A stretch of DNA of 64,000 bases from an uncultured Candidatus Saccharibacteria bacterium. GTDB taxonomy: Bacteria > Patescibacteriota > Saccharimonadia > Saccharimonadales > 2-12-FULL-41-12. The notes beneath the pieces were generated by a model. That model saw only the letters and a program-made list of their open reading frames with translations. It had not been told where the DNA came from and did no database searches. This document shows positions 130 to 43,694 of this stretch, in pieces; within the stretch, counting starts at the first letter, position 1; each line of letters starts with the position of its first letter. The stretch is from positions 4,624 to 68,623 of the forward strand of contig CAZTQB010000004.1 of NCBI GenBank assembly GCA_964615775.1. Reading direction: 5' to 3'. A program made the translations under genes and the position numbers.

Positions 130-138
130 TGGTATTAT
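130..138 (+). promoter_or_regulatory. Extended -10 box TGgTATTAT, 7 nt upstream of ATG 146 (leaderless-type start)
   Basis: TG at 130-131 and hexamer TATTAT at 133-138. The 7-nt gap atggcca contains no SD. Confidence 0.5.
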
Positions 139-145
139 ATGGCCA

Positions 146-985
146 ATGAACGAAAAAGGTTTGGGTTTACGGCTACAAAAAGTACGGAAAGAAGCAGGAT
201 TTACGCAACAAGATTTGTGTCAAAAATCTGGGCTTAGCTATTCGACATTAGCCAAGATTGAGCGTGGAGCAATAAAATCACCGTCAATTTTTACAATCCA
301 ACAAATTGCCGCAGTATTAGGCACCACTATTGATGAACTTATGGGCATTGAACAGGTTTTGCCTATTAATGCCAAGAGAACTTCCAATACTGGCATAAAG
401 TTTGTCTATTTTGATATAAATGGTTGTTTAGTTGGGTTTTTTCACAGAGCCTTTAGTAAAATTTCGATCGACTATTCCCTGCCTTTAGACTTTGTAGAGT
501 CAACATGCTGGCACTACAACGATGCGGTTTGTCGCGGTGACATGACCCTAGAGGAGTACAATGGAGAGTTGGCCAAAACCTTTAATCTAGCAGAGTTTGA
601 TTGGGCGAAGTACTATCTTGCATCGGTTGATCCGATACCACAGTCACGGGAGCTGATAACTTGGGCATCAGAGAACTACCATATAGGTTTACTGAGCAAC
701 ATAATGCCGGGGTTGATTGATAAAATGATTGACCAAGATATAATTCCTAATTTGTCTTACGACCAAATAATTGATTCTTCACAGGTTGGAGCCATCAAAC
801 CAGAGCCAAAAATTTTTGAGTTTGCGACCAAAAAAGCCAAAGTTGACCCAGAAGAAATTCTACTAGTAGATGATTCGCGTTCCAACCTTATGGCTGCCGA
901 AAAACAGGGCTGGAGAGTATCTTGGTTTGATGATTATCGTCCAGATGAATCGGCTAGTAAAGTTCGTCAAGCATTGGAATTTTAG
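146..985 (+). CDS. XRE-family HTH domain fused to a HAD-like hydrolase domain
   Basis: The N-terminus LRLQKVRKEAGFTQQDLCQKSGLSYSTLAKIERG is a typical Cro/C1 HTH. The C-terminal part has HAD motifs: YFDINGCL (motif I, with DxN instead of DxD), GLLSN, KPEPKIF and LLVDDSRSN. Confidence 0.75.
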   Translation: MNEKGLGLRLQKVRKEAGFTQQDLCQKSGLSYSTLAKIERGAIKSPSIFTIQQIAAVLGTTIDELMGIEQVLPINAKRTSNTGIKFVYFDINGCLVGFFHRAFSKISIDYSLPLDFVESTCWHYNDAVCRGDMTLEEYNGELAKTFNLAEFDWAKYYLASVDPIPQSRELITWASENYHIGLLSNIMPGLIDKMIDQDIIPNLSYDQIIDSSQVGAIKPEPKIFEFATKKAKVDPEEILLVDDSRSNLMAAEKQGWRVSWFDDYRPDESASKVRQALEF

Positions 986-1014
986 GCTTTTTTGAAATAT
1001 TCAGTAACCCGTCA

Positions 1015-1020
1015 TAAAAT
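1015..1020 (+). promoter_or_regulatory. -10-like TAAAAT, 7 nt upstream of ATG 1028
   Basis: TAAAAT, then ataaact, then ATG. No SD. Confidence 0.35.
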
Positions 1021-1027
1021 ATAAACT

Positions 1028-1471
1028 ATGTTAAATGCATTAAGCGGTCGGGTTAATCGCAGAACGTATGTTATTGGTAATATCATTGCTTTGGGTGTAC
1101 TTTTTCTGCTATGTGCCTTGATTATGATACCTCTAGCTATCTTGAGCTTGGTTCTGCACAATAAACTTTTCGATGAAGGCGTAAGCGTGATCGTCAAAAT
1201 CTTGATTTTACCGATACTGCTCTGGCTTTTTTATTTTGTGATACTAATGATTAGACGACTTCATGATATCAACTTCCCTGGCCTAATTATTGTTATAGCA
1301 TTTTTTGCTTTTATGGGCTTTGGGCGGCTGATGGATCTTTGGTTGTTGAATTTGGCTGGAGTTTTTGTAATTCTGGCTATCTGTCTGATACCTGGCAAAA
1401 AACATCGTAATCAATTTGGTCCTCACCCCCGCAAAAGGGTCAACTTCGAAGATCTCAAGGTCAATTTCTAA
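1028..1471 (+). CDS. DUF805-family integral membrane protein
   Basis: Multiple TM helices and the RRLHDINFPG motif typical of DUF805 (YhaH/YhaI-like) proteins. Confidence 0.7.
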   Translation: MLNALSGRVNRRTYVIGNIIALGVLFLLCALIMIPLAILSLVLHNKLFDEGVSVIVKILILPILLWLFYFVILMIRRLHDINFPGLIIVIAFFAFMGFGRLMDLWLLNLAGVFVILAICLIPGKKHRNQFGPHPRKRVNFEDLKVNF

Positions 1472-4020: not shown

Positions 4021-4503
4021 GAGTTATTTAGTCTTTTAGTTAAAATTTTTAAAAAAAGTAGGTTATTATTATGCACTGATAAAAAATTTAAGTAAATTAG
4101 GTCGTCAACACACAACTTAATCATATTTATATTATATCACCTCTGTTGATTATTCGAGTCTTCCAGCTTATTTTTCGGTGGTTATCTTTAGACTAGGTTG
4201 AAGCATAAAAGAGCAAGGGATTAGCTCGTGCCAACTGTAATTAAGGGCAATAGACAGGCCAGTTTACTCTGAGAATAAAGAAATCATATTTTTATTCTTG
4301 TTTAATCTTTCACATGAAATAAAGCCAACTCAAATTTAAGCTTGCGGTTTCGAAAGCTCAAACTTAAACAGGCTTTAATTGAATTTTATTTACGATTTTT
4401 GTTTTTGTAACTACTACTTTAACAGAGGTTAACTGTATTTGTCAATCTTCTTATGCTAATTATGTAAATCTGACAACAATATTAAGTATTTTTACACGTA
4501 GGC

Positions 4504-5592
4504 TTACATAGATAAGCTAGGAGAAATTTCTAGCTTATTTGGATCTGCCTTGGATAAGTTAGCATTTATTTTTAACACTCCCAAAGTAGCGATCATTGCG
4601 GCGTTGTCGGTGCATAATTTAATATCTGGATAAAACGGCTGAATATCTAGCTGAGATTCTAGTTGCCCGCGTAACTCATGGTTGGCCGCCACGCCACCGG
4701 CTATCACTACAGATCTTGGTGAGAATTCGTAGTAAGCTTTCATTGTTTTATCTACAACAATATTAATTGCAGTTTTCTGAAATGAAGCGGCAATATCATT
4801 CACCTGAGCTTCAGATAGGCGATTTTTAATACTTCCAGAAGGAAAGCGGTGATCTTCACCTATCAGTTTTTGGGCGGTCCTTAAAACGGCTGTTTTAAGC
4901 CCAGAATAGCTAAAATCGTATACACCTGCTGGCTTGGGGGTAGGGAAGTGGTATTTGTCAGAGCTACCGCTTAGGGCAGCCTTGGATATGCTTGGTCCAC
5001 CGGGGTAGGGTAAGCCAATTATCTTGGCAACTTTGTCAAAAGCTTCGCCAATAGCATCGTCATGGGTTCGCCCTAAGACTTGGTAGTCAAAAGCACTACC
5101 AAAAAGCACTAGTTGAGTGTGTCCGCCACTGACGATTAGGGATAGCATTGGAAACTTAGGGGCAAAAGAGGGTAAGTCGTAATCTTTCATGGCGGCTTCC
5201 GTTATAAAGGCAGCAAATGGGTGGGCGTGAACATGATTTATGGCATAGAGTGGCTTGTTTTGGGTGATAGACAACGTCCGAGCTGCACTTACGCCAACCA
5301 GTAAGCTACCACCCAATCCAGGACCTTCGGTCACGGCAATAGCGTCGATTTTTTGCCAACCAGCTTGTTGACTTAAACCGGGAAATGCCTCTGATATCGT
5401 TTGTTCTAAAACAGGGTTCATGTACTCTATGTGACTGCGAGCCGCTACCTCTGGCACTATGCCACCGTATACAGCATGCTTATCCATACTAGTTGCTACA
5501 ACATTCGACAACATCTTTAAGCCAGTATCACCTTGCTGGATAACAGCTGCCGCCGTTTCATCGCAGCTAGATTCGATTCCAAGAACTATCAT
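4504..5592 (-). CDS. tsaD: tRNA N6-adenosine threonylcarbamoyltransferase TsaD (Kae1/Gcp family)
   Basis: MIVLGIESSCDETAAAV N-terminus, HVHAH metal motif and GGVAAN near the C-terminus. Confidence 0.95.
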   Translation of the reverse strand: MIVLGIESSCDETAAAVIQQGDTGLKMLSNVVATSMDKHAVYGGIVPEVAARSHIEYMNPVLEQTISEAFPGLSQQAGWQKIDAIAVTEGPGLGGSLLVGVSAARTLSITQNKPLYAINHVHAHPFAAFITEAAMKDYDLPSFAPKFPMLSLIVSGGHTQLVLFGSAFDYQVLGRTHDDAIGEAFDKVAKIIGLPYPGGPSISKAALSGSSDKYHFPTPKPAGVYDFSYSGLKTAVLRTAQKLIGEDHRFPSGSIKNRLSEAQVNDIAASFQKTAINIVVDKTMKAYYEFSPRSVVIAGGVAANHELRGQLESQLDIQPFYPDIKLCTDNAAMIATLGVLKINANLSKADPNKLEISPSLSM

Positions 5593-5599
5593 AAGTTTA

Positions 5600-5605
5600 A
5601 TACTA
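5600..5605 (-). promoter_or_regulatory. -10-like TAGTAT, 7 nt upstream of the tsaD ATG (minus strand)
   Basis: The minus strand reads tttTAGTATtaaacttATG. No SD. Confidence 0.4.
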
Positions 5606-5638: not shown

Positions 5639-5644
5639 TAAGAT
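5639..5644 (+). promoter_or_regulatory. -10-like TAAGAT, 7 nt upstream of ATG 5652
   Basis: TAAGAT, then tagatat, then ATG. No SD. Lies in the 59-bp divergent tsaD/murE spacer. Confidence 0.4.
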
Positions 5645-5651
5645 TAGATAT

Positions 5652-6941
5652 ATGAACCCAAAGAAAGCTGTTAGGCAAATAATACCAAAATCAGGGGTCA
5701 AATTGGCTGAAAAGTCGTATCGTAGAGCAAGGGGTAAAATTTGGCAGACCTATTATGGTAATTCGGCAGCTAAGTTAGAGATAATTGCCGTAACTGGTAC
5801 TAATGGTAAAACTACAACCTGTAGCTACATAAATAGCGTTCTAAGGGCAGCTGGGCATAAAACAGCTGTCTATACGACAGCATTTTTTGAGATTGATGGA
5901 CAGCGAGTAGCTAACCATACTCATATGACCGTGGCTAGCCAGAAGTCGGTTCAGAAGTTTTTTGCTCAGGCTTATAGGGCAGGGGTTAATTACGTAGTTA
6001 TTGAGATTACGTCGCACGCTTTAGATCAGCGACGGATTGCAATGCCTAAAGTCAAATTAGGCGTTATGACCAATTTAACCCAGGACCATCTAGACTATCA
6101 TGGCACCATGGAGGAATATGCAGCAGCCAAAGCTCGGTTGTTTTCTTCTGAATATCGGGCAGACTATGCAATTTTAAACAGCGACGATGATTGGTATGAC
6201 TTTTTTGCCAATAATTCTTCTGCACCGGTGATAGGTTATGGCATGGCAGCTGGTTCGATTATTCGGCTCAATAAACATAACTCTTCTGCAGCTGGTTCAG
6301 ATTTTGAGGTGGTGATAGACTCTAAAAAGCACAGATTCCATACTAGCTTACTGGGCAAATTCAATATCTATAATTCTTTAGCGGCCATAGGTGTGGCTCG
6401 TCAGCTTGGGATTAATATAGATGACGTTCAGAAGGGTATAGCCGAGCTAAAGGCTGTGCCGGGTCGCATGGAACAGATCGACGAGGGTCAAGGTTTTAAT
6501 GTTCTGGTGGATTTTGCCTATACTCCCGATGCCTTAGAAAACGCTTTACGTACTTTACGACCACTGACCAAGGGTAATTTGGCGATTGTTTTTGGGGCGA
6601 CTGGTGACCGCGACAAGACTAAACGTCCACTTATGGGTAAGGTCGTAGGGCAACTGGCAGATAAAATTTATCTGACAGATGACGAGACTTATACCGAAGA
6701 TCCAACAGCTATCTGGCAGGCTGTTTATGAAGGTATAAAAACTGTCAATGCAACCAAAAAGACTGAAGTTATTGATGATCGGCTTAAGGCGATTAAACTT
6801 GCCTTCAAGCAGGCTAAGAAAGGTGATACGATATTGCTAACAGGCATCGGTCACGAAAATTACCGCAATATGGGTGGTCAAAAAATGCGATGGGATGAAC
6901 GCCAAATTGCCAAAAAAGAACTAAAAAAGCTAGCGTTGTAA
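5652..6941 (+). CDS. murE: Mur ligase, MurE-like (UDP-MurNAc-L-Ala-D-Glu--amino acid ligase) with a shortened N-terminal domain
   Basis: VTGTNGKTTT P-loop, EITSHAL, TNLTQDHLDYHGTMEEY, NSDD, DFAYTPDALENAL, GATGDRD..KRPLMG and TDDETYTEDP (in place of DNPR). The P-loop lies at about residue 48. Confidence 0.8.
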   Translation: MNPKKAVRQIIPKSGVKLAEKSYRRARGKIWQTYYGNSAAKLEIIAVTGTNGKTTTCSYINSVLRAAGHKTAVYTTAFFEIDGQRVANHTHMTVASQKSVQKFFAQAYRAGVNYVVIEITSHALDQRRIAMPKVKLGVMTNLTQDHLDYHGTMEEYAAAKARLFSSEYRADYAILNSDDDWYDFFANNSSAPVIGYGMAAGSIIRLNKHNSSAAGSDFEVVIDSKKHRFHTSLLGKFNIYNSLAAIGVARQLGINIDDVQKGIAELKAVPGRMEQIDEGQGFNVLVDFAYTPDALENALRTLRPLTKGNLAIVFGATGDRDKTKRPLMGKVVGQLADKIYLTDDETYTEDPTAIWQAVYEGIKTVNATKKTEVIDDRLKAIKLAFKQAKKGDTILLTGIGHENYRNMGGQKMRWDERQIAKKELKKLAL

Positions 6942-15215: not shown

Positions 15216-15224
15216 TGTTATAAT
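15216..15224 (+). promoter_or_regulatory. Extended -10 box TGTTATAAT, 7 nt upstream of the argS ATG (leaderless-type)
   Basis: TATAAT at 15219-15224, gap tgttact, ATG at 15232. No SD. Confidence 0.6.
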
Positions 15225-15231
15225 TGTTACT

Positions 15232-16896
15232 ATGTTAGATAAAATTAACGGGGTTTTGATGAATGCAGTTCAGAAACTGTACTGCGAGACTATGGAAGCT
15301 AGCTTTGCAAGATCGGATCACTGCGATTTTGCCAGTAATATAGCTATGCAGCTTAGTGGCAAGCTAGGTAAAAACCCTATAGACATTGCTGAGCAGTTGC
15401 GTGCCGAAATTTCAGAGAACTCTTTTTTTAGCAGAATAGAAGTTGCTGGACCGGGCTTTTTGAATGTTTGGCTAAGTGACGAAGTGTTAATTCAAGCATT
15501 AGACTCAGACGGAATGACTGTTTTTGACATAAATGATGGAAATGGTGGTGCAGTTTTGCTTGAATATTCTTGCCCAAATGCTTTTAAGGAACTTCATACC
15601 GGACATCTCTATCAAACATTGATTGGCGATAGCATGGGACGGATTTATGAATTTTTGGGCGTAAAGGTTTATAGAACTAGCTTTGGTGGTGATGTGGGTT
15701 TGCATGCCGCAAAGTGTATGTGGGGGATTTTACAAGCTCTTGGTGGTGAAAATCTTACCAAATTGACAGAGGTAGAAGACCATGCGGCTTGGATTTCGGC
15801 AGCTTACGTGGTAGGGTCCAAGGCTTACGAAGAAGATGAGTTTGTAAAAGCCGAAATAGACAATCTAAACAAAAAAATCTATGGTTTGCATGAATCTGGT
15901 GATATAGTATCTGATTTTGCTCAGATTTATTTTACGACGAGGCAGTGGAGTTATGATTATTTTGATAAATTTTATGCTGATATAGATGTAGTTGCGTTTG
16001 ATAAATATTATCCAGAAAGTGTGACTTCTGGTCCTGGGTTAGAGGTCGTTAGTCAAAATTTGGTTGATGTTTTTAGTGAGAGTGAAGGGGCGGTAGTATT
16101 AGATGAAGCCAAGTCTGGTCTACATACTAGGGTGTTTGTGACTTCGGCTGGTTTGCCGACTTACGAGACTAAAGATTTAGGTGTTGTTAGGCTGGAAAAT
16201 CAGGACTTTAATTACGAGAAGCGAATTATTATGACTGGCAATGACCAATCGGAGTACATGAAGGTAGTTTTTAAGGCACTCGAGCTGATTGACCCTGTGT
16301 TGGCGGCTAAGCAAAGGCATATTGCAAATGGCACAGTTAAATTCGCTAACGGCCAAAAAATGAGTTCTAGATTAGGTAATGTAACCAAGGCAACAGATGT
16401 AATTGAGGCAGTTAGTTTGGCTATGTCGGCCGGAGACCAAGCAGTAAAAAAAGACATGGTGCTAGGTGCAATTAAATATTCGCTGCTAAAAAGCAAGGTA
16501 GGCGGTGATATTGCTTTTGATATAGAAAAATCGATTAGCGTCGAAGGTAACAGTGGACCTTATATGCAGTATGCTCTGGCTCGAGCTAACTCGGTACTTG
16601 CTAAAGCCAAAAAACGAGGGAGTATACCAAAAGAATTAACAGATGGCGAACGGAATTTTGCCCTTAAATTGACTGATTTTGGTCAGGCAATAGAAGTAGC
16701 AATTAAAGATTTTTCACCGCATCACGTTGCTAGTTTCTTGTATGACTTAGCTCAAGAGTTTAATCGTTTTTACGAAAAAAATCGGATTATTGATGATCAA
16801 CGAGAAGTCGAGAGGTTATTTTTGGTAAACAAGTATCAAAAAATTCTAAAACAGGGCTTGGAACTACTTGGTGTACCAACTCCGGAAAAAATATGA
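15232..16896 (+). CDS. argS: Arginine--tRNA ligase
   Basis: HTGHL (HIGH) motif, MSSRLGN in the KMSKS position, and a C-terminal DALR anticodon-binding region (ASFLYDLAQEFNRFYE). Confidence 0.93.
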   Translation: MLDKINGVLMNAVQKLYCETMEASFARSDHCDFASNIAMQLSGKLGKNPIDIAEQLRAEISENSFFSRIEVAGPGFLNVWLSDEVLIQALDSDGMTVFDINDGNGGAVLLEYSCPNAFKELHTGHLYQTLIGDSMGRIYEFLGVKVYRTSFGGDVGLHAAKCMWGILQALGGENLTKLTEVEDHAAWISAAYVVGSKAYEEDEFVKAEIDNLNKKIYGLHESGDIVSDFAQIYFTTRQWSYDYFDKFYADIDVVAFDKYYPESVTSGPGLEVVSQNLVDVFSESEGAVVLDEAKSGLHTRVFVTSAGLPTYETKDLGVVRLENQDFNYEKRIIMTGNDQSEYMKVVFKALELIDPVLAAKQRHIANGTVKFANGQKMSSRLGNVTKATDVIEAVSLAMSAGDQAVKKDMVLGAIKYSLLKSKVGGDIAFDIEKSISVEGNSGPYMQYALARANSVLAKAKKRGSIPKELTDGERNFALKLTDFGQAIEVAIKDFSPHHVASFLYDLAQEFNRFYEKNRIIDDQREVERLFLVNKYQKILKQGLELLGVPTPEKI

Positions 16897-17524: not shown

Positions 17525-18334
17525 TCAATAGCTTGGTGCAGCCGGCAAGCCAAAATACTCTTCGAGCGTAAGATTGCCAACTTTTTGTGAAACGTCAGTG
17601 CCGATATATCTGATATGCCAAGGCTCGTATTGGTAGCCGGTAACACTAGTTTTGTCTTCTAGATATCTGACGACGAATCCATATTTGGTTGCATTGTTTT
17701 TAAGCCAAATACCGGCTGCCGTGTTGCCGAAACAGGTTTCTAGGTCACAAGTGCCGTTGCCTAGGTCGATAGCAAGACCTGTTTGGTGTTCGCTGTATCC
17801 TGGTCTGGCACTATATGTGTCGGCTAGGGCCACTCCGTCGCGAGCTACCCAGCCGTTATATGTAGATTGCTGATTGGCATATGATCTGTAAGAGCTAAGA
17901 ATTTTCATGCCTACGCCAGCTGCCACTGCATCATTTAGAAGTTGGCTTAGGCTAGTTGCTGCTTCGGCTCGAACTGTGCCACCGGCGACTGACGTTAAAT
18001 TAGGTGGTACATAACTAGCTGATAGTGGGCGTTTTTTGTTGACAATTGCGGTTAATGAACTGGGGTCAGATATAGGTGTGGAAGCTGGGGTACTAGATGG
18101 TTCTGTGATAGGAGTTGGTTTTGGAACTACTGGGGCTGGCTTATTTTCAGTTTCTGTTGGCTGTGGTTGAGTGTTCGAGTCAGTCGTTTTTGCAGGAACT
18201 ATTGGGTTTTTGTGATCGTTTTTCGTAAACAAAAATACGCCTAAGCCGATCACTAAGAACAACACTAGTCCGTAAACAACTAACATTTTACGGCTTTTGT
18301 ATGAAAAAGACTTAAAGAGGAACTTACGCTTCAT
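17525..18334 (-). CDS. D-alanyl-D-alanine carboxypeptidase, VanY/peptidase M15B family, membrane-anchored
   Basis: N-terminal TM and a Pro-rich linker. SYRSYANQ, SEHQTGLAIDL and EPWHIRY Zn-peptidase motifs. Confidence 0.88.
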   Translation of the reverse strand: MKRKFLFKSFSYKSRKMLVVYGLVLFLVIGLGVFLFTKNDHKNPIVPAKTTDSNTQPQPTETENKPAPVVPKPTPITEPSSTPASTPISDPSSLTAIVNKKRPLSASYVPPNLTSVAGGTVRAEAATSLSQLLNDAVAAGVGMKILSSYRSYANQQSTYNGWVARDGVALADTYSARPGYSEHQTGLAIDLGNGTCDLETCFGNTAAGIWLKNNATKYGFVVRYLEDKTSVTGYQYEPWHIRYIGTDVSQKVGNLTLEEYFGLPAAPSY

Positions 18335-18340
18335 AAACAG

Positions 18341-18349
18341 ATAATATCA
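18341..18349 (-). promoter_or_regulatory. Extended -10 box TGaTATTAT, 6 nt upstream of ATG 18334 (minus strand)
   Basis: The minus strand reads aTGATATTATctgtttATG. No SD. Confidence 0.5.
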
Positions 18350-18353
18350 TATT

Positions 18354-18362
18354 TGCTATACT
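18354..18362 (+). promoter_or_regulatory. Extended -10 box TGCTATACT, 7 nt upstream of the orn ATG (leaderless-type)
   Basis: TATACT at 18357-18362, gap gtttgtt, ATG at 18370. Confidence 0.6.
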
Positions 18363-18369
18363 GTTTGTT

Positions 18370-18921
18370 ATGAGTATGGCAAATATTAATAAGGATAAAT
18401 TACCAACTAAATTACTATGGGTTGATTTGGAAATGACCGGGCTGAGTCCACAAAAGGACAAAATTATAGAAGTGGCCTGCGAGGTGACGGATTTTGAATA
18501 CAAAACACTAGCCAGTTATGAGGCAGTGATTAAACACACTAATGAAGTTATAGATAATATGAACCCTTGGAGTCAAACTCAACACCAGAAAAGTGGCTTG
18601 ATTGACAGAATAAAGTCCGAGGGCCGCGAAGAGAAAGAAGTTATTCACGAGCTAGTTGGGTTTATAAAAGCTCAATTTGGTAGCGAACCAGCAGTGCTGG
18701 CAGGTAATTCCATCCATAACGATCGAGGATTTATTACAGTCCATTGGCCGGAGGTAGAGGCGTTGCTACACTACCGCATGCTAGATGTGTCAAGCTGGAA
18801 AATAGTCATGCAAGCCAGAGGTATAGAATTTGCCAAAAAAGAAGTTCACAGAGCCTTTGATGACATTCAGGCCTCGATAGCAGAACTACAATATTACCTG
18901 CATGCCTTAAAAAGCCTCTAA
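18370..18921 (+). CDS. orn: Oligoribonuclease (DEDDh exonuclease)
   Basis: LLWVDLEMTGL, GNSIHNDRGF and HRAFDDIQASIAEL motifs. Confidence 0.9.
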   Translation: MSMANINKDKLPTKLLWVDLEMTGLSPQKDKIIEVACEVTDFEYKTLASYEAVIKHTNEVIDNMNPWSQTQHQKSGLIDRIKSEGREEKEVIHELVGFIKAQFGSEPAVLAGNSIHNDRGFITVHWPEVEALLHYRMLDVSSWKIVMQARGIEFAKKEVHRAFDDIQASIAELQYYLHALKSL

Positions 18922-18951: not shown

Positions 18952-18960
18952 TGCTAAACT
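18952..18960 (+). promoter_or_regulatory. Extended -10 box TGCTAAACT, 7 nt upstream of ATG 18968 (leaderless-type)
   Basis: TAAACT at 18955-18960, gap gttaatt, ATG at 18968. Confidence 0.5.
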
Positions 18961-18967
18961 GTTAATT

Positions 18968-24674: not shown

Positions 24675-24683
24675 TGTTATAAT
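24675..24683 (+). promoter_or_regulatory. Extended -10 box TGTTATAAT, 7 nt upstream of the polA ATG (leaderless-type)
   Basis: TATAAT at 24678-24683, gap ctggctt, ATG at 24691. No SD. Confidence 0.6.
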
Positions 24684-24690
24684 CTGGCTT

Positions 24691-27330
24691 ATGAAGCGGC
24701 TAGTGGTGATTGATGGCAAAAGTGTATTTTATCGTGGCTATTATGCCATGTCTGGCCTTAGTACTAAAGACGGTATACCAACTGGTGGAGTTTATGGTTT
24801 TGCGGTCATGGCTCTAGAAGTAATAAAGCGTCTTAGGCCAGACTATGTCTGTGTGGCTTGGGATAAGCCAAAGACCAATATACGTAAACGTCTAGCAATT
24901 TACGCCGATTATAAGGCCGGTCGGAAACCAGCACCTGATGATTTTTATGCTCAGATACCCCTGTTGCATGAACTTCTAGATGCTTTTAGTTGGCCACTCT
25001 ATGAATGTGACGACTATGAGGCTGATGATATTATGGGAACTCTAGCACTCAAGGCTAGTGAACAAAATATTGAGACTATTTTGGTTACTTCGGATCTGGA
25101 TATGCTGCAGCTAGTAAACAGCAAGGTGAAGGTATATGCTCTAAAAAAAGGCTTAAGTAATATTGAAGAATACCACCCTGAAAGTTTCACGCTTAAGTAC
25201 AGCATACGGCCAGATCAATTCGTAGACCTTAAGGCTTTAAAAGGTGATAGCTCTGATAATATTCCTGGTGTGCCGGGTATTGGCGAAAAAGGTGGTATAA
25301 AATTATTACAGGATTTTGAGACTCTTGATGGTATATATGAAAATATCGAGCTAATCAGTGGCTCGACCCATAAAAAGCTGGTTGATGGCAAAGATTCTGC
25401 CTATATGAGCAAGCGGTTAGCAGAAATTTGGCTAGATGCTCCTGTTGAGCTAGATCTTAAGGCAAAAGATGTTACGGATTGTGATAGTAGCAAAGTTATG
25501 AACGTCTTAAAGAAGCTAGAGTTCCGTAGCCTAATGCGTCAACTGCCAGAGGTGATGAACGTGCAAATTGACGAGACTTTGCCAACTGAAAAAAATTTTG
25601 ATTTAAGTCTTGGCAAACTAGAATTAATAGATGCAGATGATAAACTGGCGAAATTAGCCACAAAAGACTGGCAAGAGCTGGTCATGTCTAGCTATGCTAC
25701 TGGCAAAAATGGTAAAGGAGGTTTGTATTTGGTCATTGCTCCAAATATTAAGCAAAACTATGTTATTGATCTGCAGAAAATTTCAACCAAAAAACTGCAA
25801 AGTAAACTAAAAAGCACACTAGAAGATCTTGAAGTCAAAAAAATTGGCTATGACCTAAAATCAACAATAAAAGTTTTATTTGAGCTAGGCATAAAAATTA
25901 AAAATATTGAACACGATGTGCATGTGGGAGCATTTTTATTAAATAGTGTTCGACGGGAACAGTCCTTGACGGACTTAGCCAGGACCGATCTTGGTTATGA
26001 TGGGGGAGGACTAGATGGTTTATCGCCCGAGGAGTTTTTGGAGCGAAGTCCGCAAATTATGTCGGCAATTCGTGGACTATATAATTTTCAGGCTGAGCAG
26101 ATGAGCGAACTCACAGATATGATTACGTTAGCAGAGACAGTGGAGTTCCCGGTGATTCCAGTACTAGCAGACATGGAGTACAAAGGTATTAAACTAGAAG
26201 TGAATACTCTTAGAAAGCTTTCTAAACAGCTAGATGATGCCATTTCAGACCTTGAACAAACTATTTATGGATATGCTAATAGTGAGTTTAATATAGCCTC
26301 GCCGTCACAACTAGCGGATATATTGTATGGCAAGCTTAATTTGCCAACTAATTTTATAAAAAAAGGCAAAACCGGTTATTCTACGGCTGCAAACGAGCTA
26401 GCGAAGTTGCGACATCTTCACCCTATAATTGACTGTATTAGTAATTTTAGAGAAGTTACTAAACTAAAAAATACCTATGTAGATACTTTGCCAAGTATGG
26501 TTGATGAGAACTCGCGGATTCATACGACTTTCAATATGACAACGGCTCAAACTGGTCGCTTGAGTAGTCTTGATCCAAACTTACAAAACATACCAGTTCG
26601 GACAGAACTAGGTAATAAAGTTCGAGAGGCTTTTGTGGCCGATAAGGCCAATGTGTTGATTAGTGCCGATTATAGCCAGTTTGAACTAAGGTTGGCGGCG
26701 GTGTTGGCAGATGACCAAGATATGATTAATAATTTTAACGAAGATATTGATATTCATCGTCAAACTGCGGCTGAGATTTTGCGGATTAAGCCAGAAGAGG
26801 TGACTAAACAACAGAGATACGAGGCAAAGGCTGTAAATTTTGGTATTCTGTATGGTCAAGGTCCGCACGGATTAGCCGAAGGTACGGGTATGAGTTTTCA
26901 GGATGCTAAGTTTTTTATTGATCGGTATTTTGAAGTCCGACCTAAGCTAAAGGACTATATCGCTAAGACTCGTAAACAAGCAAGCGAACAAGGCTATGTC
27001 AAAACACTACTGGGTCGACGTCGGCCAACACCAGATGTCAGAAGTTCAAATTTTGTCTTACGCGAAGCGGCCTATCGGGCTGCTGTCAATATGCCAGTTC
27101 AGGGAACGGCTGCCGATCTAACCAAGTTAGCCATGGTAAAACTAGCCAAAAAACTAGATGACGATTGTCAAATGTTACTACAGATCCATGACAGTATTCT
27201 GATAGAGTGTCCCAAAACTAAGGCTGAGGGTGTAAGCCAAATGCTTAAAGATATAATGGAAGGTGTCTACAGTTTGCCTGTAAAACTTAAAGTAGATGTT
27301 GCTACTGCTCAAAACTGGGGTGAATTTTAG
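24691..27330 (+). CDS. polA: DNA polymerase I
   Basis: 5' nuclease domain (GDSSDNIPGVPGIGEKG) and polymerase motifs A (ISADYSQFELRLAA), B (RYEAKAVNFGILYG) and C (QIHDSI). The central 3'-5' exo-like region lacks an obvious DxE Exo I motif. Confidence 0.97.
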   Translation: MKRLVVIDGKSVFYRGYYAMSGLSTKDGIPTGGVYGFAVMALEVIKRLRPDYVCVAWDKPKTNIRKRLAIYADYKAGRKPAPDDFYAQIPLLHELLDAFSWPLYECDDYEADDIMGTLALKASEQNIETILVTSDLDMLQLVNSKVKVYALKKGLSNIEEYHPESFTLKYSIRPDQFVDLKALKGDSSDNIPGVPGIGEKGGIKLLQDFETLDGIYENIELISGSTHKKLVDGKDSAYMSKRLAEIWLDAPVELDLKAKDVTDCDSSKVMNVLKKLEFRSLMRQLPEVMNVQIDETLPTEKNFDLSLGKLELIDADDKLAKLATKDWQELVMSSYATGKNGKGGLYLVIAPNIKQNYVIDLQKISTKKLQSKLKSTLEDLEVKKIGYDLKSTIKVLFELGIKIKNIEHDVHVGAFLLNSVRREQSLTDLARTDLGYDGGGLDGLSPEEFLERSPQIMSAIRGLYNFQAEQMSELTDMITLAETVEFPVIPVLADMEYKGIKLEVNTLRKLSKQLDDAISDLEQTIYGYANSEFNIASPSQLADILYGKLNLPTNFIKKGKTGYSTAANELAKLRHLHPIIDCISNFREVTKLKNTYVDTLPSMVDENSRIHTTFNMTTAQTGRLSSLDPNLQNIPVRTELGNKVREAFVADKANVLISADYSQFELRLAAVLADDQDMINNFNEDIDIHRQTAAEILRIKPEEVTKQQRYEAKAVNFGILYGQGPHGLAEGTGMSFQDAKFFIDRYFEVRPKLKDYIAKTRKQASEQGYVKTLLGRRRPTPDVRSSNFVLREAAYRAAVNMPVQGTAADLTKLAMVKLAKKLDDDCQMLLQIHDSILIECPKTKAEGVSQMLKDIMEGVYSLPVKLKVDVATAQNWGEF

Positions 27331-27353: not shown

Positions 27354-27593
27354 TTATATAATTTTAATAATTATTTTGTGGGTATTACCAAAACTTCTTT
27401 GTAGTCTAAAAATCTGAAACCTTAGTGCATTTGCTGCTGATGCACCTTCTATATAAACAATAAAGTTTTGGCCGGTCATTCTGACTTTTGGAGTTTGGTC
27501 GATATGTTCCTGTACAAATTTTTTAATTTTATTTATTTCTGGCGGCTCAGAAAATCGTGAGTTATTTAGTAAATCGCCCAAAGAGTCTGCCAT
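27354..27593 (-). CDS. DUF721/DciA-like small protein
   Basis: 79 aa. KVRMTGQNFIVYIEGASAANALRFQIFRL resembles the DUF721 core. Low certainty. Confidence 0.4.
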   Translation of the reverse strand: MADSLGDLLNNSRFSEPPEINKIKKFVQEHIDQTPKVRMTGQNFIVYIEGASAANALRFQIFRLQRSFGNTHKIIIKII

Positions 27594-27599
27594 GTAGCT

Positions 27600-27608
27600 A
27601 TTATAGCA
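27600..27608 (-). promoter_or_regulatory. Extended -10 box TGCTATAAT, 6 nt upstream of ATG 27593 (minus strand)
   Basis: The minus strand reads atTGCTATAATagctacATG. Confidence 0.55.
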
Positions 27609-27621: not shown

Positions 27622-27650
27622 TTGATTTTATATAGGATATGTAGTATAAT
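27622..27650 (+). promoter_or_regulatory. Promoter TTGATT-N17-TATAAT, with the -10 box 9 nt upstream of ATG 27660
   Basis: TTGATT at 27622-27627 and TATAAT at 27645-27650. Confidence 0.5.
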
Positions 27651-27659
27651 AGTAGTAAT

Positions 27660-28250
27660 ATGCCAAGGAAGTATCTTTTAACACTTTTAGTTATCGCTAC
27701 TGTACTGTTTGCAGTTGTGCTAATTACAGTTGGTTTTTTTAATAGAGGTAGTTCTAAAAATACGTCTAATGCTCCAAAAACAGCTCAGCAAATTAAGACC
27801 GAGAAAGCCTCTAAGTTGGACTCAGCACGTAAAGTAAGCTTTACGTCCCATGGTCGACTAGTTAGTGATCAAGAACGTCGAGGCATTAGGATAGAGGTAA
27901 CTGCCCAGGAAGTACGACTTGATATTTTAAGAACATATTCTGATGAAGTTGAGTCAACGAAGTCGTTTGAAAACACCAAAGACAGTTTCGATAACTTACT
28001 TGCTAACTTAAGAGCCATTGGCTATGATGCCACAATTGACAGTCGTATAACAGATAAACGAGCGGCTTGTCCAACTAACTGGACTTATGATTATGGTATT
28101 GAATATAGTGACGGCTCAAAAAATAACACATGGTCGACCACTTGTCCAAAAGTCGATGGTACTTTTGGTGGTGATGAGCAAATGGCTATCAAAATAATGC
28201 AAGCTCAAGTGCCAAATTATTACGAACTTACTCGCAGCGTTCAGTTTTAA
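27660..28250 (+). CDS. Hypothetical membrane-anchored or secreted protein
   Basis: N-terminal TM/signal anchor LLTLLVIATVLFAVVLITVGFF. No family motif recognised. Confidence 0.55.
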   Translation: MPRKYLLTLLVIATVLFAVVLITVGFFNRGSSKNTSNAPKTAQQIKTEKASKLDSARKVSFTSHGRLVSDQERRGIRIEVTAQEVRLDILRTYSDEVESTKSFENTKDSFDNLLANLRAIGYDATIDSRITDKRAACPTNWTYDYGIEYSDGSKNNTWSTTCPKVDGTFGGDEQMAIKIMQAQVPNYYELTRSVQF

Positions 28251-28276: not shown

Positions 28277-28282
28277 TATAAT
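28277..28282 (+). promoter_or_regulatory. -10 box TATAAT, 6 nt upstream of the mutM ATG
   Basis: gaTATAATgagtatATG. No SD. Confidence 0.5.
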
Positions 28283-28288
28283 GAGTAT

Positions 28289-29161
28289 ATGCCAGAATTA
28301 CCAGAGGTAGAAACAGTTAAACGCGGCTTAGAAAGGCTGCTCGTTAGTAAACAGGTTATTGGTGTAGAGTTTGACTGGCCAAAGTCTTTTCCTAACCCAG
28401 CTTCAGAAGTGAATAAATTTTTACTTGGTGCAAGAGTTAGATGCGTAAAAAGACGAGCCAAGGTTTTAATAATCGAACTTGACACAAACTATAGTTTGGT
28501 CACACACCTTAAAATGACTGGCCAGCTAGTTTACCGCGGACAACAGGCTTTTGGGGCAGGTCACCCAAATAATTCTTTAGTTGGCAAATTGCCTGATAAA
28601 TCTACTAGAGTGACACTGTCTTTTAGTGATGAATCTAGATTATTTTTTAATGACCAACGTAAATTTGGGTGGATGCGACTGATCGCTACAACTCTGATAA
28701 AAGAACTAGATTTTTTTAAGAAAGTTGGCCCTGAGCCACTAGAAGACGAGTTTACGTACCAGGTTTTTGAAAGTCGCTTGCAGCGGCGAAAAAATAGCAA
28801 TATTAAGTCAGTGCTACTCGACCAGACTGTGCTGGCTGGGGTCGGCAATATCTATGCCGATGAATCGCTGTGGGGTGCCAAAGTTCACCCTGCGACACTT
28901 GTCAAATATATACCGGTTACTAAGTTAAAAAAGTTATTCACGGAAATAAAGTATATCTTAAATTTATCGATAGAAAAGGGCGGCTCGACAGACAAAAATT
29001 ATGTCGATGCTGAGGGCAAAAGAGGTAGTTATTTGCAATTTGCTAGAGTTTTTCGGAGAGAAAATCTACCTTGTCCAAATTGCCAGACGACGATTATTAA
29101 GATTCGGGTAGCTGGTCGAGGAACGCATGTTTGTCCAAACTGCCAAAGGCAGCCGAAATGA
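28289..29161 (+). CDS. mutM: Formamidopyrimidine-DNA glycosylase (Fpg/MutM)
   Basis: MPELPEVETV N-terminus, an H2TH region, and an intact C-terminal zinc finger CPNC...CPNC. Confidence 0.95.
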   Translation: MPELPEVETVKRGLERLLVSKQVIGVEFDWPKSFPNPASEVNKFLLGARVRCVKRRAKVLIIELDTNYSLVTHLKMTGQLVYRGQQAFGAGHPNNSLVGKLPDKSTRVTLSFSDESRLFFNDQRKFGWMRLIATTLIKELDFFKKVGPEPLEDEFTYQVFESRLQRRKNSNIKSVLLDQTVLAGVGNIYADESLWGAKVHPATLVKYIPVTKLKKLFTEIKYILNLSIEKGGSTDKNYVDAEGKRGSYLQFARVFRRENLPCPNCQTTIIKIRVAGRGTHVCPNCQRQPK

Positions 29162-32295: not shown

Positions 32296-32301
32296 TATAC
32301 T
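32296..32301 (+). promoter_or_regulatory. -10 box TATACT, 8 nt upstream of the truB ATG
   Basis: ggTATACTactgctagATG. No SD. Confidence 0.4.
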
Positions 32302-32309
32302 ACTGCTAG

Positions 32310-33056
32310 ATGATAACAGATGGTTTTTTGCTGATTGATAAGCCCAAGGGCTGGACTTCTTTTGATATTGTTGCCAAGGTTCGCGGTAGCTTGCAGGCCG
32401 AAAAACGCCAACTTCACACTGCTCGAGGCTACTGTAGTGATCCGCCAAAGTCTGGCCAAACGACTAGTAATTTTCGTTGTCGCTGTAAATCCAAGGTCGG
32501 TCATAGTGGCACACTAGACCCTTTAGCTACGGGGCTGATGATTGTATTAGTAGGTAGTTATTGTAAGCAAGCTAGTGAATTCTCAAAACTTAATAAAAGC
32601 TATGATGTAGAGATGAAATTTGGTGTATCTTCAACCACTGGCGATGAAGAGGGTGAAAAGACCTATCAGGCTTGCCAGCAATTCAGTTTAGAGCAAGTCA
32701 AAAAGACTCTCAAAGCCTTTTTAGGTGAGAGTATGCAGACTCCACCAATCTATTCAGCTATCAAAATAAATGGTCAAAAAGCTTACAATTTAGCTCGCAA
32801 AGGCCAAAAAGTTGAATTAGAGCCACGTAAAGTTACTATATATGATATAAAGCTCAAAGATTATTCTTTCCCGGTACTTAGGTTTAGCGTAAACGTATCC
32901 AGTGGAACTTATATACGAAGTTTGGTAGAGGATATTGCAAGGGAACTCGGTACTTTAGGTTATTTGACGTCTCTTCGTCGTACGGTTGTTGGTGAATACA
33001 ATATCGCCAAAGCTGTCGCTATAGGTAAATTTACTTGCAAAAACGTAAAAAAATGA
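32310..33056 (+). CDS. truB: tRNA pseudouridine(55) synthase TruB, with an insertion before the catalytic motif
   Basis: GFLLIDKPKGWTSFDIV and KVGHSGTLDPLATG (catalytic Asp) motifs. They are separated by about 27 extra residues relative to the usual spacing. Confidence 0.9.
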   Translation: MITDGFLLIDKPKGWTSFDIVAKVRGSLQAEKRQLHTARGYCSDPPKSGQTTSNFRCRCKSKVGHSGTLDPLATGLMIVLVGSYCKQASEFSKLNKSYDVEMKFGVSSTTGDEEGEKTYQACQQFSLEQVKKTLKAFLGESMQTPPIYSAIKINGQKAYNLARKGQKVELEPRKVTIYDIKLKDYSFPVLRFSVNVSSGTYIRSLVEDIARELGTLGYLTSLRRTVVGEYNIAKAVAIGKFTCKNVKK

Positions 33057-41308: not shown

Positions 41309-41339
41309 ATAGTTTATTATTTAAAAACATTCACCGCTT

Positions 41340-41375
41340 AAATAGCTCGGCTTACTCCGAGCTATTTATTTTATG
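41340..41375 (+). terminator. Intrinsic terminator
   Basis: AAATAGCTCGG-cttact-CCGAGCTATTT, followed by ATTTTAT. Confidence 0.65.
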
Positions 41376-41434
41376 TTAATATTGACTTTTGTGGTAAAAT
41401 ATGCTACAATCAAAGAGTAAATTACAAATAAAAA

Positions 41435-41443
41435 TGGTATAAT
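41435..41443 (+). promoter_or_regulatory. Extended -10 box TGGTATAAT, 7 nt upstream of the ftsK ATG (leaderless-type)
   Basis: TATAAT at 41438-41443, gap tactctt, ATG at 41451. Confidence 0.6.
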
Positions 41444-41450
41444 TACTCTT

Positions 41451-43694
41451 ATGGCTAAAAAGAAACACAAATCAAAAACTAAAAAAATACCAGTCAAAGC
41501 CAGCCCAAGCGAAAGGTCGGTAGTTTGGCCTTATGTAGGTATGGTATTTATGGTACTTTTGGCGGCAATAATTGGTCTAGGTAGTTTTAATACTGGCGGC
41601 AAAATGCCAATTATGATATTTGATGGTTTTAGTTGGTTGATAGGAATTGCTGCTTTTATTCTGCCAGTTGCATTAGTATTTTTGGTTTTTGTTAAGTTTA
41701 GAAATGAAGAGCATTTAATACCAAAAGGTCGCTTATTGGCTCTAGTAGGTTTTTTTGTGAGTTTATCGGCTTTTGCCCATGTAGCTTTTGTAAAACTACC
41801 CGACAGTACTAGTGTAATGATAAGTGAAGCGACTGGTGGCAAAGGTGGACATCTTGGCTCACTAATTGGTGGAGTAGTGTTAGACGCACTTGATAAAATT
41901 CCGGCAGTTATTTTGCTAATGTTGATTAGTCTGGTCTTGCTGTTTTTAGGGTTTTATATTCCGTTTAGATTGTTAGCAGCTCCTTTTAAGAAAAAGGAAA
42001 AAGATAAAGACACTGATCTTGGTGACCTAAAAGAAAAGCATTTTAAATTAAACGCTGGTGTGCCAACAGTGGGTACGCCTGAGCCTATAGAACCGCCTAA
42101 ACCAAAGCCGCGTCTGAGTAGCTTTCGCAATGCTGCTCGGGACAGCGAAAGACCTACTGGTAAATCTGATGAAGCACTGATAACTACCAATGATACGGAC
42201 TGGAAGTTTCCATCTGTTAGCTTACTAAACCAAACTCAGGATAAAGCCAATGCTGGTGATGTAAATGGCAATGCAGACGTGATTCGTGAAACATTTAATA
42301 ACTTCAATATTGATGTTGTTATGGAAGGAGCTAACATTGGGCCGCGTGTTACGCAGTATACACTGCGTCCTCCTACAGGAGTAAAATTGACCAAAATCAC
42401 AGCTCTCGAAAATAATTTGGCTCTGGATTTGGCGGCAACCTCGATTCGTATGGAGGCTCCTATCCCTGGCAAGAGACTAGTAGGTATAGAAGTGCCAAAT
42501 ATTAAGTCAGCGACAGTGCGTTTGAGTAGTTTGCTGCTAACAAATGAGTGGGAACAGGAAAAATCCAGACCACTTAATTTTGCGATTGGTAAAGATATAT
42601 CAGGTAAATCGGTTTATGGTGATCTAGCAAAAATGCCACACCTTTTGGTAGCTGGTCAGACTGGTTCTGGTAAATCAGTAATGATTAATACTATTTTAAC
42701 TAGTCTTTTGTATCATAATTCGCCATCAGATATGAAGTTGATTTTGGTGGATCCGAAGACGGTCGAAATGGCTCCCTACGATGATATACCACACCTTCTA
42801 ACACCTGTGATTACCGAACCAGAGAAGTGTATGAGTGCTTTGAAATGGGCAGTAGCTGAGATGGAGCGACGCTATAGAACTCTAGCTGAGGTTAAAAAGC
42901 GAAATATTGCCGAGTACAATGCACTTAAAAAAGAAGAGAGCATGCCATATATTGTGATTGTGATTGACGAGTTGGCGGATCTTATGATGATGGCAGCTCG
43001 CGATGTTGAAGCTTTGATTGTACGAATTGCCCAGAAGGCTCGAGCAGTCGGTATACACTTGATTTTGGCCACACAAAGGCCAAGTGTTGACGTAATTACT
43101 GGATTGATTAAGGCTAATGTGCCGGCCCGGATAGCCTTTACGACTACTTCGCAGGTAGACTCGCGAACTATTATCGACCAAGTTGGTGCCGAGAAGTTGC
43201 TTGGTAGAGGTGATATGCTTTATAAAACTAGTGAAATGCCGCAGCCAATCCGTGTTCAAGGCTCTCTAATAGACGACAACGAAACCAATAAAGTTACGGA
43301 CTTTTTGCGAGAGCAAAGGCAGCCACAATACGATGATGAGGTGGTAGCTCAGCCAGTTCAGTTTAATGGCAAGGGTGGAGTTGTGGCACCGATGGCTAGT
43401 AATGATGCTGATGACGACATGTGGGAAGATGCAGTTAGGGTAGTCATAGAAGGTCGAAAGGCTAGTACTAGCTTGCTGCAAAGGCGACTAAGAGTTGGCT
43501 ATGCTCGAGCAGCAAGACTGATCGAGACAATGGAGGAGCAAGGCATAGTCAGTCATGCTGATGGTTCGAAAGCTAGAGAAGTTTTGGTTAGTAGTATGGA
43601 TGAAGTTTTTGGTGGTGAGTCTGCCATGGAAGAAGCAAACTATGGTCAGGAACTTGGTGATGAGACGCCTGAAGAGAATTATCTGGCAAAATAA
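41451..43694 (+). CDS. ftsK: DNA translocase FtsK
   Basis: N-terminal TM helices, a linker, motor domain (GQTGSGKSV, VIDELADL, ATQRPS) and gamma domain (LLQRRLRVGYARAARLIETMEEQGIV). Confidence 0.96.
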   Translation: MAKKKHKSKTKKIPVKASPSERSVVWPYVGMVFMVLLAAIIGLGSFNTGGKMPIMIFDGFSWLIGIAAFILPVALVFLVFVKFRNEEHLIPKGRLLALVGFFVSLSAFAHVAFVKLPDSTSVMISEATGGKGGHLGSLIGGVVLDALDKIPAVILLMLISLVLLFLGFYIPFRLLAAPFKKKEKDKDTDLGDLKEKHFKLNAGVPTVGTPEPIEPPKPKPRLSSFRNAARDSERPTGKSDEALITTNDTDWKFPSVSLLNQTQDKANAGDVNGNADVIRETFNNFNIDVVMEGANIGPRVTQYTLRPPTGVKLTKITALENNLALDLAATSIRMEAPIPGKRLVGIEVPNIKSATVRLSSLLLTNEWEQEKSRPLNFAIGKDISGKSVYGDLAKMPHLLVAGQTGSGKSVMINTILTSLLYHNSPSDMKLILVDPKTVEMAPYDDIPHLLTPVITEPEKCMSALKWAVAEMERRYRTLAEVKKRNIAEYNALKKEESMPYIVIVIDELADLMMMAARDVEALIVRIAQKARAVGIHLILATQRPSVDVITGLIKANVPARIAFTTTSQVDSRTIIDQVGAEKLLGRGDMLYKTSEMPQPIRVQGSLIDDNETNKVTDFLREQRQPQYDDEVVAQPVQFNGKGGVVAPMASNDADDDMWEDAVRVVIEGRKASTSLLQRRLRVGYARAARLIETMEEQGIVSHADGSKAREVLVSSMDEVFGGESAMEEANYGQELGDETPEENYLAK

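Follow-up and report, generated by a model that had tools for sequence, protein, structure and literature searches.

Leaderless mRNAs are translated via direct recognition of the 5'-terminal AUG (review PMC9031893), as in the lambda cI mRNA from the promoter PRM, which starts with AUG and whose translation depends on that 5'-terminal AUG (PMC10491246), and a strict ATG requirement for leaderless expression in Escherichia coli is cited in PMC3898074. In the group C genomes of GeneMarkS-2 (Lomsadze et al. 2018, PMC6028130), a Pribnow box precedes the start by 6-8 nucleotides (nt), and leaderless operons make up 25-50% of the total. Such genomes are common among Actinobacteria (90%) and Deinococcus-Thermus (97%) but not among Proteobacteria or Firmicutes, where they are rare. 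In Mycobacterium tuberculosis, a TANNNT motif is found 7-12 bp upstream of the transcription start site (TSS) (Cortes et al. 2013, PMC3898074), and the leaderless genes include half of those for tRNA synthetases and none of those for ribosomal proteins (PMC3898074). In Deinococcus deserti, approximately 60% of mRNAs are leaderless, with GUG also serving as the 5' codon, according to differential RNA sequencing (dRNA-seq) and proteogenomics (de Groot et al. 2014, PMC4007540). Here, we describe a recurrent -10 box that lies 6-9 nt before the ATG of about a quarter of the genes in a 64,000-nt stretch of DNA (the window; contig CAZTQB010000004.1) from an uncultured Candidatus Saccharibacteria bacterium of the Saccharimonadia; these genes have no Shine-Dalgarno (SD) site and are very probably made as leaderless mRNAs.

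The arrangement resembles that of M. tuberculosis and of group C genomes in its TANNNT motif at a fixed short distance, in the lack of a recognisable -35 element and in the share of putatively leaderless genes, roughly a quarter. As in M. tuberculosis, ribosomal-protein genes are SD-led and closely juxtaposed divergent promoters are common, and as in D. deserti, a bacterial lineage would make a large share of its mRNAs with a start at or near the initiation codon, from a TAnnnT -10 motif. The rules differ from those of M. tuberculosis in two respects: the TGn extension of the -10 box, present at 7% there, is found at 9 of 17 boxes in the window and at 34% in the clade, and ATG, which is used equally with GTG in the leaderless genes of M. 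tuberculosis, is near-obligatory here (17/17 in the window, 95% in the clade). The Saccharibacteria genome is also, unlike that of M. tuberculosis, of low to medium GC content and very small, and its proposed leaderless class, in contrast to those of M. tuberculosis and D. deserti, is deduced from sequence and comparison. In promoters of E. coli (sigma-70) and the Firmicutes (SigA), a TG set one base ahead of the -10 hexamer makes up for a -35 element that is weak or missing. The boxes described here share with these extended -10 promoters the TG at exactly matching positions (-15/-14) and a weak or dispensable -35, whereas the mRNAs of the former are normally leadered and the +1 position of the latter would fall on the start codon. 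Lambda cI is a rare exception in E. coli, unlike the genome-wide, conserved class of housekeeping genes that we describe. Many genes without an SD site are also found in group B genomes of the Bacteroidota (PMC6028130), but those have leadered mRNAs with a non-SD ribosome-site motif near the start, whereas the motif here has the form of a promoter box and coexists with canonical SD sites.

A literature search found no text linking leaderless mRNAs with Saccharibacteria, Patescibacteria or the candidate phyla radiation (CPR); most subscription journals and the GeneMarkS-2 genome tables lay outside the search, and an earlier mention is possible. A TM7x transcriptome preprint makes no mention of TSSs, untranslated regions (UTRs) or promoters, and a study that used 188 TSSs from RNA-seq of N. 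lyticus does not discuss leaderless genes (PMC12641261). We would regard the mechanism as a known one in a lineage that appears new for it, with no prior description found for Saccharimonadia.

The window has approximately 40% GC throughout and holds 62 non-overlapping long open reading frames (ORFs) of housekeeping type. Naive starts (n=62) were taken as the first ATG, GTG or TTG of each long ORF, leaving unused the start picks of an earlier, sequence-only reading of the window, which avoids circularity; under this rule dnaG is counted at 19966 and not at 19999. Controls were the 1866 other ATGs in the window and 1000 dinucleotide-preserving shuffles of the same 40-nt upstream regions. A strong box is a hexamer with at least 5/6 matches to TATAAT, and the spacer (N) is the number of nt between the end of the hexamer and the start codon. 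For comparison, a scan of one genome per GTDB species yielded 80 other-species loci with dnaG (1.43 Mb, GC 37-58%, 1421 naive longest-ORF starts), with DnaG 51-63% identical to that of the window; for the CPR, this single genome-collection scan gave Saccharimonadia-type loci only. The DnaG homologues nearest to that of the window likewise bear the names Candidatus Saccharibacteria or Saccharimonadales, in keeping with an organism of the class Saccharimonadia (TM7) in the Patescibacteria/CPR. Orthologue starts were set, blind to the motif, by going from the first aligned position in tblastn to the closest in-frame start codon there or upstream. Placement by simple codon offset was dropped, having failed in families with variable N-termini (polA, orn and the family of the gene at 22901). 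Family searches confirmed the names of tsaD, murE, argS, orn, dnaG, rpoD, polA, mutM, holA, truB and ftsK, as well as valS, groES, groEL, pgi, rpsT, rpsO, pnp, rnj, rpsF, ssb, rpsR, pilM, pilB and pilT. The window RpoD is compact (375 aa), with the RpoD model NF006666 as its best family match. Rfam and tRNA scans of the window gave no matches, and the intergenic gaps are therefore not explained by RNA genes.

The sequence-only reading had listed 17 starts with a TATAAT-like hexamer shortly before the ATG, and a direct check of the sequence found each hexamer at the coordinates and spacing claimed for it (Table 1). Spacers are N6 at six starts, N7 at nine, and N8 and N9 at one each, and all 17 start codons are ATG. 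The TGn form, which the same reading had called common, is: TG stands directly upstream of 53% of the boxes, compared with a TG background of 6.2% (p=2e-7). The positional enrichment that it proposed to compute was obtained on the naive starts, with TANNNT ending 6-7 nt upstream in 15 of the 62 and at 4.0% of control ATGs (p=1.5e-8), and with a strong box at the same distance in 11 of the 62 and at 0.8% of control ATGs (p=3e-12). The composite TGnTAnnnT-N6-7-ATG occurs at just ten sites on both strands of the 64 kb, nine of which begin long genes, the remaining one beginning a 35-codon ORF ahead of valS. Comparison of SD energies, likewise proposed earlier, separates the two classes, the median anti-SD duplex being +0.1 kcal/mol for the 17 starts and -5.2 for the other 45 (p=9e-5). 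Sixteen of the 17 duplex energies lie above -6 kcal/mol, and polA alone reaches -6, via an AGGTG that overlaps its own TGn box.

The genes set against these as SD-led in the sequence-only reading (groES, groEL, pgi, rpsT, pnp, rnj, rpsF, ssb and pilT) are borne out by family and, with sites of the AAGGAG type, by sequence; rpsT has AAGGA only (-5.6) as its SD, and rpsO and rpoD can be added to them. In functional make-up, the box set covers replication and repair (dnaG, polA, mutM, ftsK), enzymes acting on tRNA and RNA (tsaD, truB, argS, orn) or on the cell wall (murE, LdcB-like), and small proteins of unknown function. Chaperonins, ribosomal proteins, RNases, ssb, rpoD, pgi and pilus ATPases make up the SD set. 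The division is similar in kind to that of M. tuberculosis, where aminoacyl-tRNA synthetase genes are often leaderless. The two kinds can be close neighbors: box-led dnaG is followed 10 nt later by SD-led rpoD.

Across the 80 species, strong boxes stand at spacers 6, 7, 8 and 9 of 84, 87, 69 and 57 naive starts, respectively (297 vs 44 expected), with 12 at spacer 5 and a background of approximately 11 per position further upstream, a distribution with a sharp onset and a hard lower bound at 6 nt. The excess is seen in 65 of the 68 loci with at least 10 genes, at a median of 20% of naive starts. Starts picked on the hexamer alone have T at -15 in 47% and G at -14 in 56%, and TGn precedes the box at 34% of them, compared with 8.8% for hexamers of equal quality at other places in these loci (p=4e-33). 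ATG is used at 95% of box-class starts vs 82% of SD-class starts. The SD peak is strongest at operon-internal starts, and a weaker -10 peak is also present where a co-directional gene lies less than 25 nt ahead of the start.

Enrichment of this kind could arise by chance or composition, if AT-rich intergenic DNA, or the in-frame TAA or TAG that bounds an ORF, yielded TANNNT near starts; raw TANNNT counts in the clade do show small bumps at spacers 0 and 12, and spacers in multiples of 3 put TA in frame, where a bounding stop would fall. The peak persists, however, for non-stop hexamers (TA[TC]NNT; 95, 99, 80 and 63 at spacers 6-9 vs approximately 21) and at the out-of-frame spacers 7 and 8, and the shuffled upstream regions gave a mean of 1.31 strong boxes (standard deviation 1.13, maximum 7) against the 11 observed. 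The excess is also independent of GC content (correlation -0.12), being equally strong at 55-58% GC, and conservation in a sister species is specific to the hexamer. An artefact of composition or in-frame stops is refuted by these non-stop hexamers, GC independence, shuffles and sister conservation, and we give it practically no chance of being correct.

In that sister species (DnaG 82% and TsaD 77% identical), the box is kept at 14 of 15 comparable starts. Its hexamer positions are identical in 81 of 84 cases (96%) and its spacer positions in 44 of 68 (65%; p=2.4e-7), and in four window/sister pairs the spacer length shifts by 1 nt and stays within 6-8. Among orthologues in the wider set, nAnnnT (at least 4/6 matches) at spacer 5-9 is found at 53 of 80 dnaG starts, against a background of 8.3%, and an SD site at 10. 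A box at spacer 5-9 is likewise found in 26/30 for argS (SD in 1), 41/63 for orn (SD in 5), 25/51 for the family of the gene at 22901 (SD in 8), 9/12 for mutM (SD in 3) and 34/68 for the YjbR-like gene (SD in 13), and polA has one in 44/53 (spacer 6-9 or 5-9 nt; SD in 3). No box occurs in 18 rpoD or 10 pgi orthologues, of which 13 and 7, respectively, have an SD site. By these counts, whether a gene belongs to the box or the SD class goes with its family across the 80 species.

Some lineages have switched the class of dnaG. At 10001 in locus L063, TACAAT lies 29 nt upstream and the gene has an AGGAG and a GTG start; dnaG is SD-led in L030 and L039, and L035 is also among the switched species. 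These four are natural class conversions, and in L063 a non-ATG codon appears together with an SD site.

The sequence-only reading preferred ATG 19999 to GTG 19966 for dnaG, and a 100%-identical database protein of 581 aa agrees with it; M1-D2-A3 of DnaG is invariant in 27 homologues, and the start position is the same in 80 of 80 species (ATG in 78, GTG in two). Fpg enzymes need an N-terminal proline as catalytic residue. The mutM start is fixed, because the MutM N-terminus is M-P-E (family profile aligned 1->1) and this proline is required. True starts that lie downstream behind SD sites, with the boxes as ordinary promoters of short-leadered mRNAs, are very unlikely. Four genes do have weak downstream alternatives (tsaD at codon 27, murE at codon 18, argS at codon 10 and the YjbR-like gene at codon 11), with SD-like duplexes of -6.2 to -7.1 kcal/mol, but homology favors the first ATG in three of the four and argues against the codon-27 start of tsaD. 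The other 13 have no downstream in-frame SD start within 40 codons. Family profiles also align from the first residues of polA (residue 2 to profile position 1), tsaD (3->1), dnaG (4->7) and argS (5->9), and the first ATG is conserved in position among orthologues of the YjbR-like gene (66/75), argS (23/32) and mutM (12/12), as it is for dnaG. An independent gene caller, whose calls accompany public contigs from this organism, uses the same starts.

We consider it highly probable that transcription in this genome begins on or beside the A of the AUG at extended -10 promoters with a weak -35, and that this mode coexists with SD-led initiation. Approximately 17-21 of the 62 genes, and roughly half of those at the head of a transcription unit, would lie directly behind a housekeeping-sigma promoter composed mainly of a -10 hexamer (TAtAaT), often TGn-extended, with little or no -35. 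RNA polymerase would start on the A of the ATG or 1-3 nt ahead of it, giving an mRNA without a 5' UTR and SD site, and the 5'-terminal AUG would be bound directly by the ribosome and initiator tRNA. A canonical AAGGAGG SD would serve genes inside operons and those with high expression (groES/EL, ribosomal proteins, pnp, rnj, ssb, rpoD, pgi). In sigma-70-type promoters, the -10 element occupies positions -12 to -7. A spacer of 6 would place +1 on the A of the ATG, a spacer of 7 would place it on the A or one base before, and spacers of 8-9 would add 1-3 extra 5' nt; the lower bound at spacer 6 is abrupt because shorter spacers would start transcription inside or after the codon. TSSs centered on the seventh base downstream of the -10 element have been reported (PMC12641261), a distance with which the spacers of 6-9 agree. 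The leaderless proposal of the sequence-only reading is supported by the TGn extension, the 6-nt spacing bound, the absence of SD sites, the ATG bias, the fixed starts and the family conservation.

Several points weigh against leaderless transcripts, besides the downstream alternatives given above. The boxes of tsaD and murE are the weakest, with 4/6 matches each, and the spacers of 8-9 (truB and the gene at 27660) imply a leader of 1-3 nt, not none. Immediately ahead of the ATG stands a T at 14 of the 17 starts and a C at one, and T is only modestly commoner there than at the other starts (22/45). Transcription starts prefer a pyrimidine at -1 and a purine at +1, a preference that T or C at -1 fits, but it lends little weight because T is common at other starts too. 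Six of the 17 starts lie 16-46 nt behind a co-directional gene, and these genes may also sit on longer transcripts in which the ATG is internal and has no SD site. A bipartite -35/-10 consensus scan of 14000-33000 gave 49 sites vs 48.8 expected, no excess, and picked up 2 of the 11 candidates in the scanned stretch; such a scan is not useful for promoters with a weak -35, and because it shows no excess the promoter call is carried by the -10/TGn element by itself. In the clade, -35-like hexamers are marginally enriched (10.8% vs 7.6%, p=0.026), and the -35 region holds a faint TTG at the 17-bp spacer only. The exact transcript 5' ends and the mode of translation are deduced from the geometry of the sequence and from comparison. 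Public contigs with identical DnaG (4-21 kb, multi-gene) do not end at gene starts, and hence give no 5'-end information.

The six starts close behind a co-directional gene, the flat bipartite scan and the marginal -35 enrichment would also suit leadered, SD-less mRNAs made from promoters further upstream or by co-transcription, with TAnnnT as an A/U-rich, unstructured ribosome landing site of the kind seen in Bacteroidota (group B). We judge this improbable. The element is shaped exactly as a sigma-70 -10 box, with T1, A2 and T6 near-invariant, and the TG at -15/-14, acting at the DNA level, has no role in an RNA landing site. The sharp cut-off below 6 nt is predicted by promoter geometry and not by a translational enhancer, ATG use is near-exclusive, and canonical SD sites elsewhere in the genome show that the anti-SD is normal. 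Box-led genes also form divergent pairs at 5592/5652 (59 bp), 18334/18370 (35 bp), 19921/19999 (77 bp) and 27593/27660 (66 bp). Within the 35 bp at 18335-18369, two extended -10 boxes stand back to back, 10 bp apart, and leadered transcripts would need both promoters inside the opposite coding regions. The gap leaves no room for leaders and implies that the polymerase footprints overlap; the promoters of 18334 and 18370 probably compete for RNA polymerase.

Beyond the window, we slightly favor the view that leaderless expression from extended -10, largely -35-free promoters is a conserved, class-wide mode in Saccharimonadia, used by approximately 20% of genes and perhaps half of transcription units, with stable assignment by family, and that it is the first documented CPR case, with a rule set unlike that of Actinobacteria. 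If so, replication, repair, tRNA-modification and cell-wall enzymes would be leaderless and chaperones, ribosomal proteins and RNases SD-led, and it is the frequent TGn and the obligatory AUG that would set the rules apart from the actinobacterial ones. The Actinobacteria, the phylum that includes the hosts of cultivated Saccharibacteria, are themselves rich in leaderless genes. Leaderless expression in Saccharimonadia could be connected with the reduced ribosome of the CPR, or make it easier to exchange genes with actinobacterial hosts. The split between SD-led high expression and leaderless housekeeping, kept over deep divergence, would place initiation mode under selection in ultra-small genomes and add a deep-branching lineage to the debate on the age of leaderless initiation; the mechanism itself would be unsurprising to specialists, yet class-wide. 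For annotation, Saccharibacteria and CPR genomes are mostly automatically annotated metagenome bins, in which a box at 6-9 nt is a strong and conserved guide to start codons, as for dnaG. Genetic tools exist for Saccharibacteria, and their expression cassettes borrow the tuf and rpsJ promoter regions (PMC10633639). The bare TGnTATAAT-N6-7-ATG module, as a native expression signal, would offer a compact second cassette design and a test system for leaderless translation on the reduced CPR ribosome.

Table 1. Box-led starts of the window, further candidate starts, and the element in the tsaD-valS gap. Coordinates are those of the window unless a locus is named; N, spacer in nt.
Box and spacer	Start codon	Coordinates	Strand	Gene and remarks
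TGgTATTAT, N7	ATG 146	130..148	+	HTH + HAD-hydrolase protein, 279 aa; sister (L081) keeps TGgTATTAT-N7-ATG
TAAAAT, N7	ATG 1028	1015..1030	+	DUF805 protein, 147 aa; TAAAAT in L081 (N7) and L082 (N6)
TAGTAT, N7	ATG 5592	5590..5605	-	tsaD; divergent from murE; box in 3/4 relatives (TAGTAT N6, TACAGT N7, TGcTAAAAT N7)
TAAGAT, N7	ATG 5652	5639..5654	+	murE; divergent from tsaD; longer ORF impossible; box in 3/4 relatives (TAAAAT N6, TATCAT N7, TATAAT N7)
TGTTATAAT, N7	ATG 15232	15216..15234	+	argS; sister species identical, TGTTATAAT N7
TGaTATTAT, N6	ATG 18334	18332..18349	-	LdcB/VanY-like carboxypeptidase; back to back with orn promoter
TGCTATACT, N7	ATG 18370	18354..18372	+	orn (oligoribonuclease); sister species TATACT N7
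TGCTAAACT, N7	ATG 18968	18952..18970	+	YjbR/MmcQ-like protein
TAAAAT, N6	ATG 19921	19919..19933	-	hypothetical protein, 215 aa; divergent from dnaG; no other in-frame start in first 40 codons; box in 4/12 orthologues (weak support), called start of sister at spacer 1
TATAAT, N6	ATG 19999	19987..20001	+	dnaG
TGaTATCAT, N6	ATG 22901	22886..22903	+	P-loop kinase-like, 195 aa; promoter begins 4 nt past rpoD stop; sister TATAAT N6 in a different upstream context
TGTTATAAT, N7	ATG 24691	24675..24693	+	polA
TGCTATAAT, N6	ATG 27593	27591..27608	-	hypothetical protein, 79 aa; divergent from 27660; sister TGtTATAAT N7
TATAAT, N9	ATG 27660	27645..27662	+	hypothetical protein, 196 aa; TTGATT 17 nt upstream as -35; sister identical, gtagTATAAT N9; orthologues mixed (box 3/13, SD 7/13); with N9, transcript may have 1-3 extra 5' nt
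TATAAT, N6	ATG 28289	28277..28291	+	mutM/fpg; sister identical, gcgaTATAAT N6
TATACT, N8	ATG 32310	32296..32312	+	truB; 16 nt past upstream gene; no downstream SD start
TGGTATAAT, N7	ATG 41451	41435..41453	+	ftsK; no downstream start with SD
TGaTATAAT, N6	ATG 4124	4122..4139	-	extra instance, absent from the sequence-only reading; opens 35-codon ORF before valS
TATAAT, N10	ATG 47663	47647..47665	+	possible near-leaderless start, 222-aa protein; predicted leader ~3-4 nt
TAAAAT, N9	ATG 50989	50987..51004	-	possible; ABC transporter ATPase
TACATT, N6	ATG 57434	57422..57436	+	possible, weak; pilM, first gene of pilus cluster
		~4295-4470	-	tsaD-valS gap element
		L081 7190-7300		tsaD-valS gap element
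		L082 7180-7275		tsaD-valS gap element
		L083 7800-8015		tsaD-valS gap element
		L084 7940-8115		tsaD-valS gap element

The valS gene (start 4020, - strand) lacks both an SD site and a -10 box at 6-9 nt. The 35-codon ORF ahead of it (4017-4124, - strand) starts 104 nt upstream, and its TGA overlaps the valS ATG (ATGA), an arrangement that suggests termination and re-initiation as the coupling between a leaderless ORF and valS behind it. Three relatives have a box directly ahead of valS: TGtTATACT-N8 in L083, TGaTATGAT-N9 in L084 and GGTGATATACT-N11 in L082. The window box at 4124 aligns with the valS box of L082, and the window and the sister species have approximately 100 extra nt between box and valS; the sister has an 18-codon ORF with its stop approximately 40 nt before valS.

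The gap between tsaD and valS, 330-480 nt long, is kept in five genomes and contains the invariant palindrome TTTCAYGTGAAA, which has no other occurrence in the window or the 80 dnaG loci and is present in more than one copy in each of L083 and L084. The palindrome is preceded by a hairpin whose stem varies yet pairs (GAGCTT/AAGCTT in the window, GGGGTTTT/AAAACC in L082), and promoter-like boxes are located upstream (TTGACA-18-TAAAGT in the window; TTGCTTATG...TGTTAATAT in L082-L084). No Rfam family matches the element, which may act as a terminator, as a regulator site or as a small RNA that has escaped annotation.

Between rpoD and the kinase-like gene, the sister species (L088 12927-13850) has an extra gene of 307 aa with weak Sigma70_r2/r4 matches and without counterpart in the window (22882-22901); despite this extra gene, the kinase-like gene has its own box and N6-ATG in both genomes.

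The longest ORF of holA (29131-30090) starts at a TTG and shares 31 nt with mutM, and residue 11 is the first to align with the family profile. Similarly, rpsO (33892) begins with TTG-ATG, and its family profile aligns only from residue 5 (profile position 2). Both longest-ORF starts are probably too long, with rpsO fitting ATG at 33895 better than the TTG. At 9337-10008, two small ORFs of unknown function, with 110 aa (9669, - strand) and 108 aa (9682, + strand), diverge from start codons only 12 bp apart; both lack a -10 box at 6-9 nt, an SD site and an NCBIfam match, and the ORF calls or their starts may be wrong.

Among the comparison loci, the records of L014, L016, L052 and L054 are titled Pristimantibacillus, Bacillota, Dormiibacterota and Parcubacteria, respectively, despite their Saccharimonadia-type dnaG loci. 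Their DnaG proteins show 51-54% identity and the same M-D-A-V N-terminus, with the same box upstream of the gene, and these four bins are probably mislabelled or contaminated.

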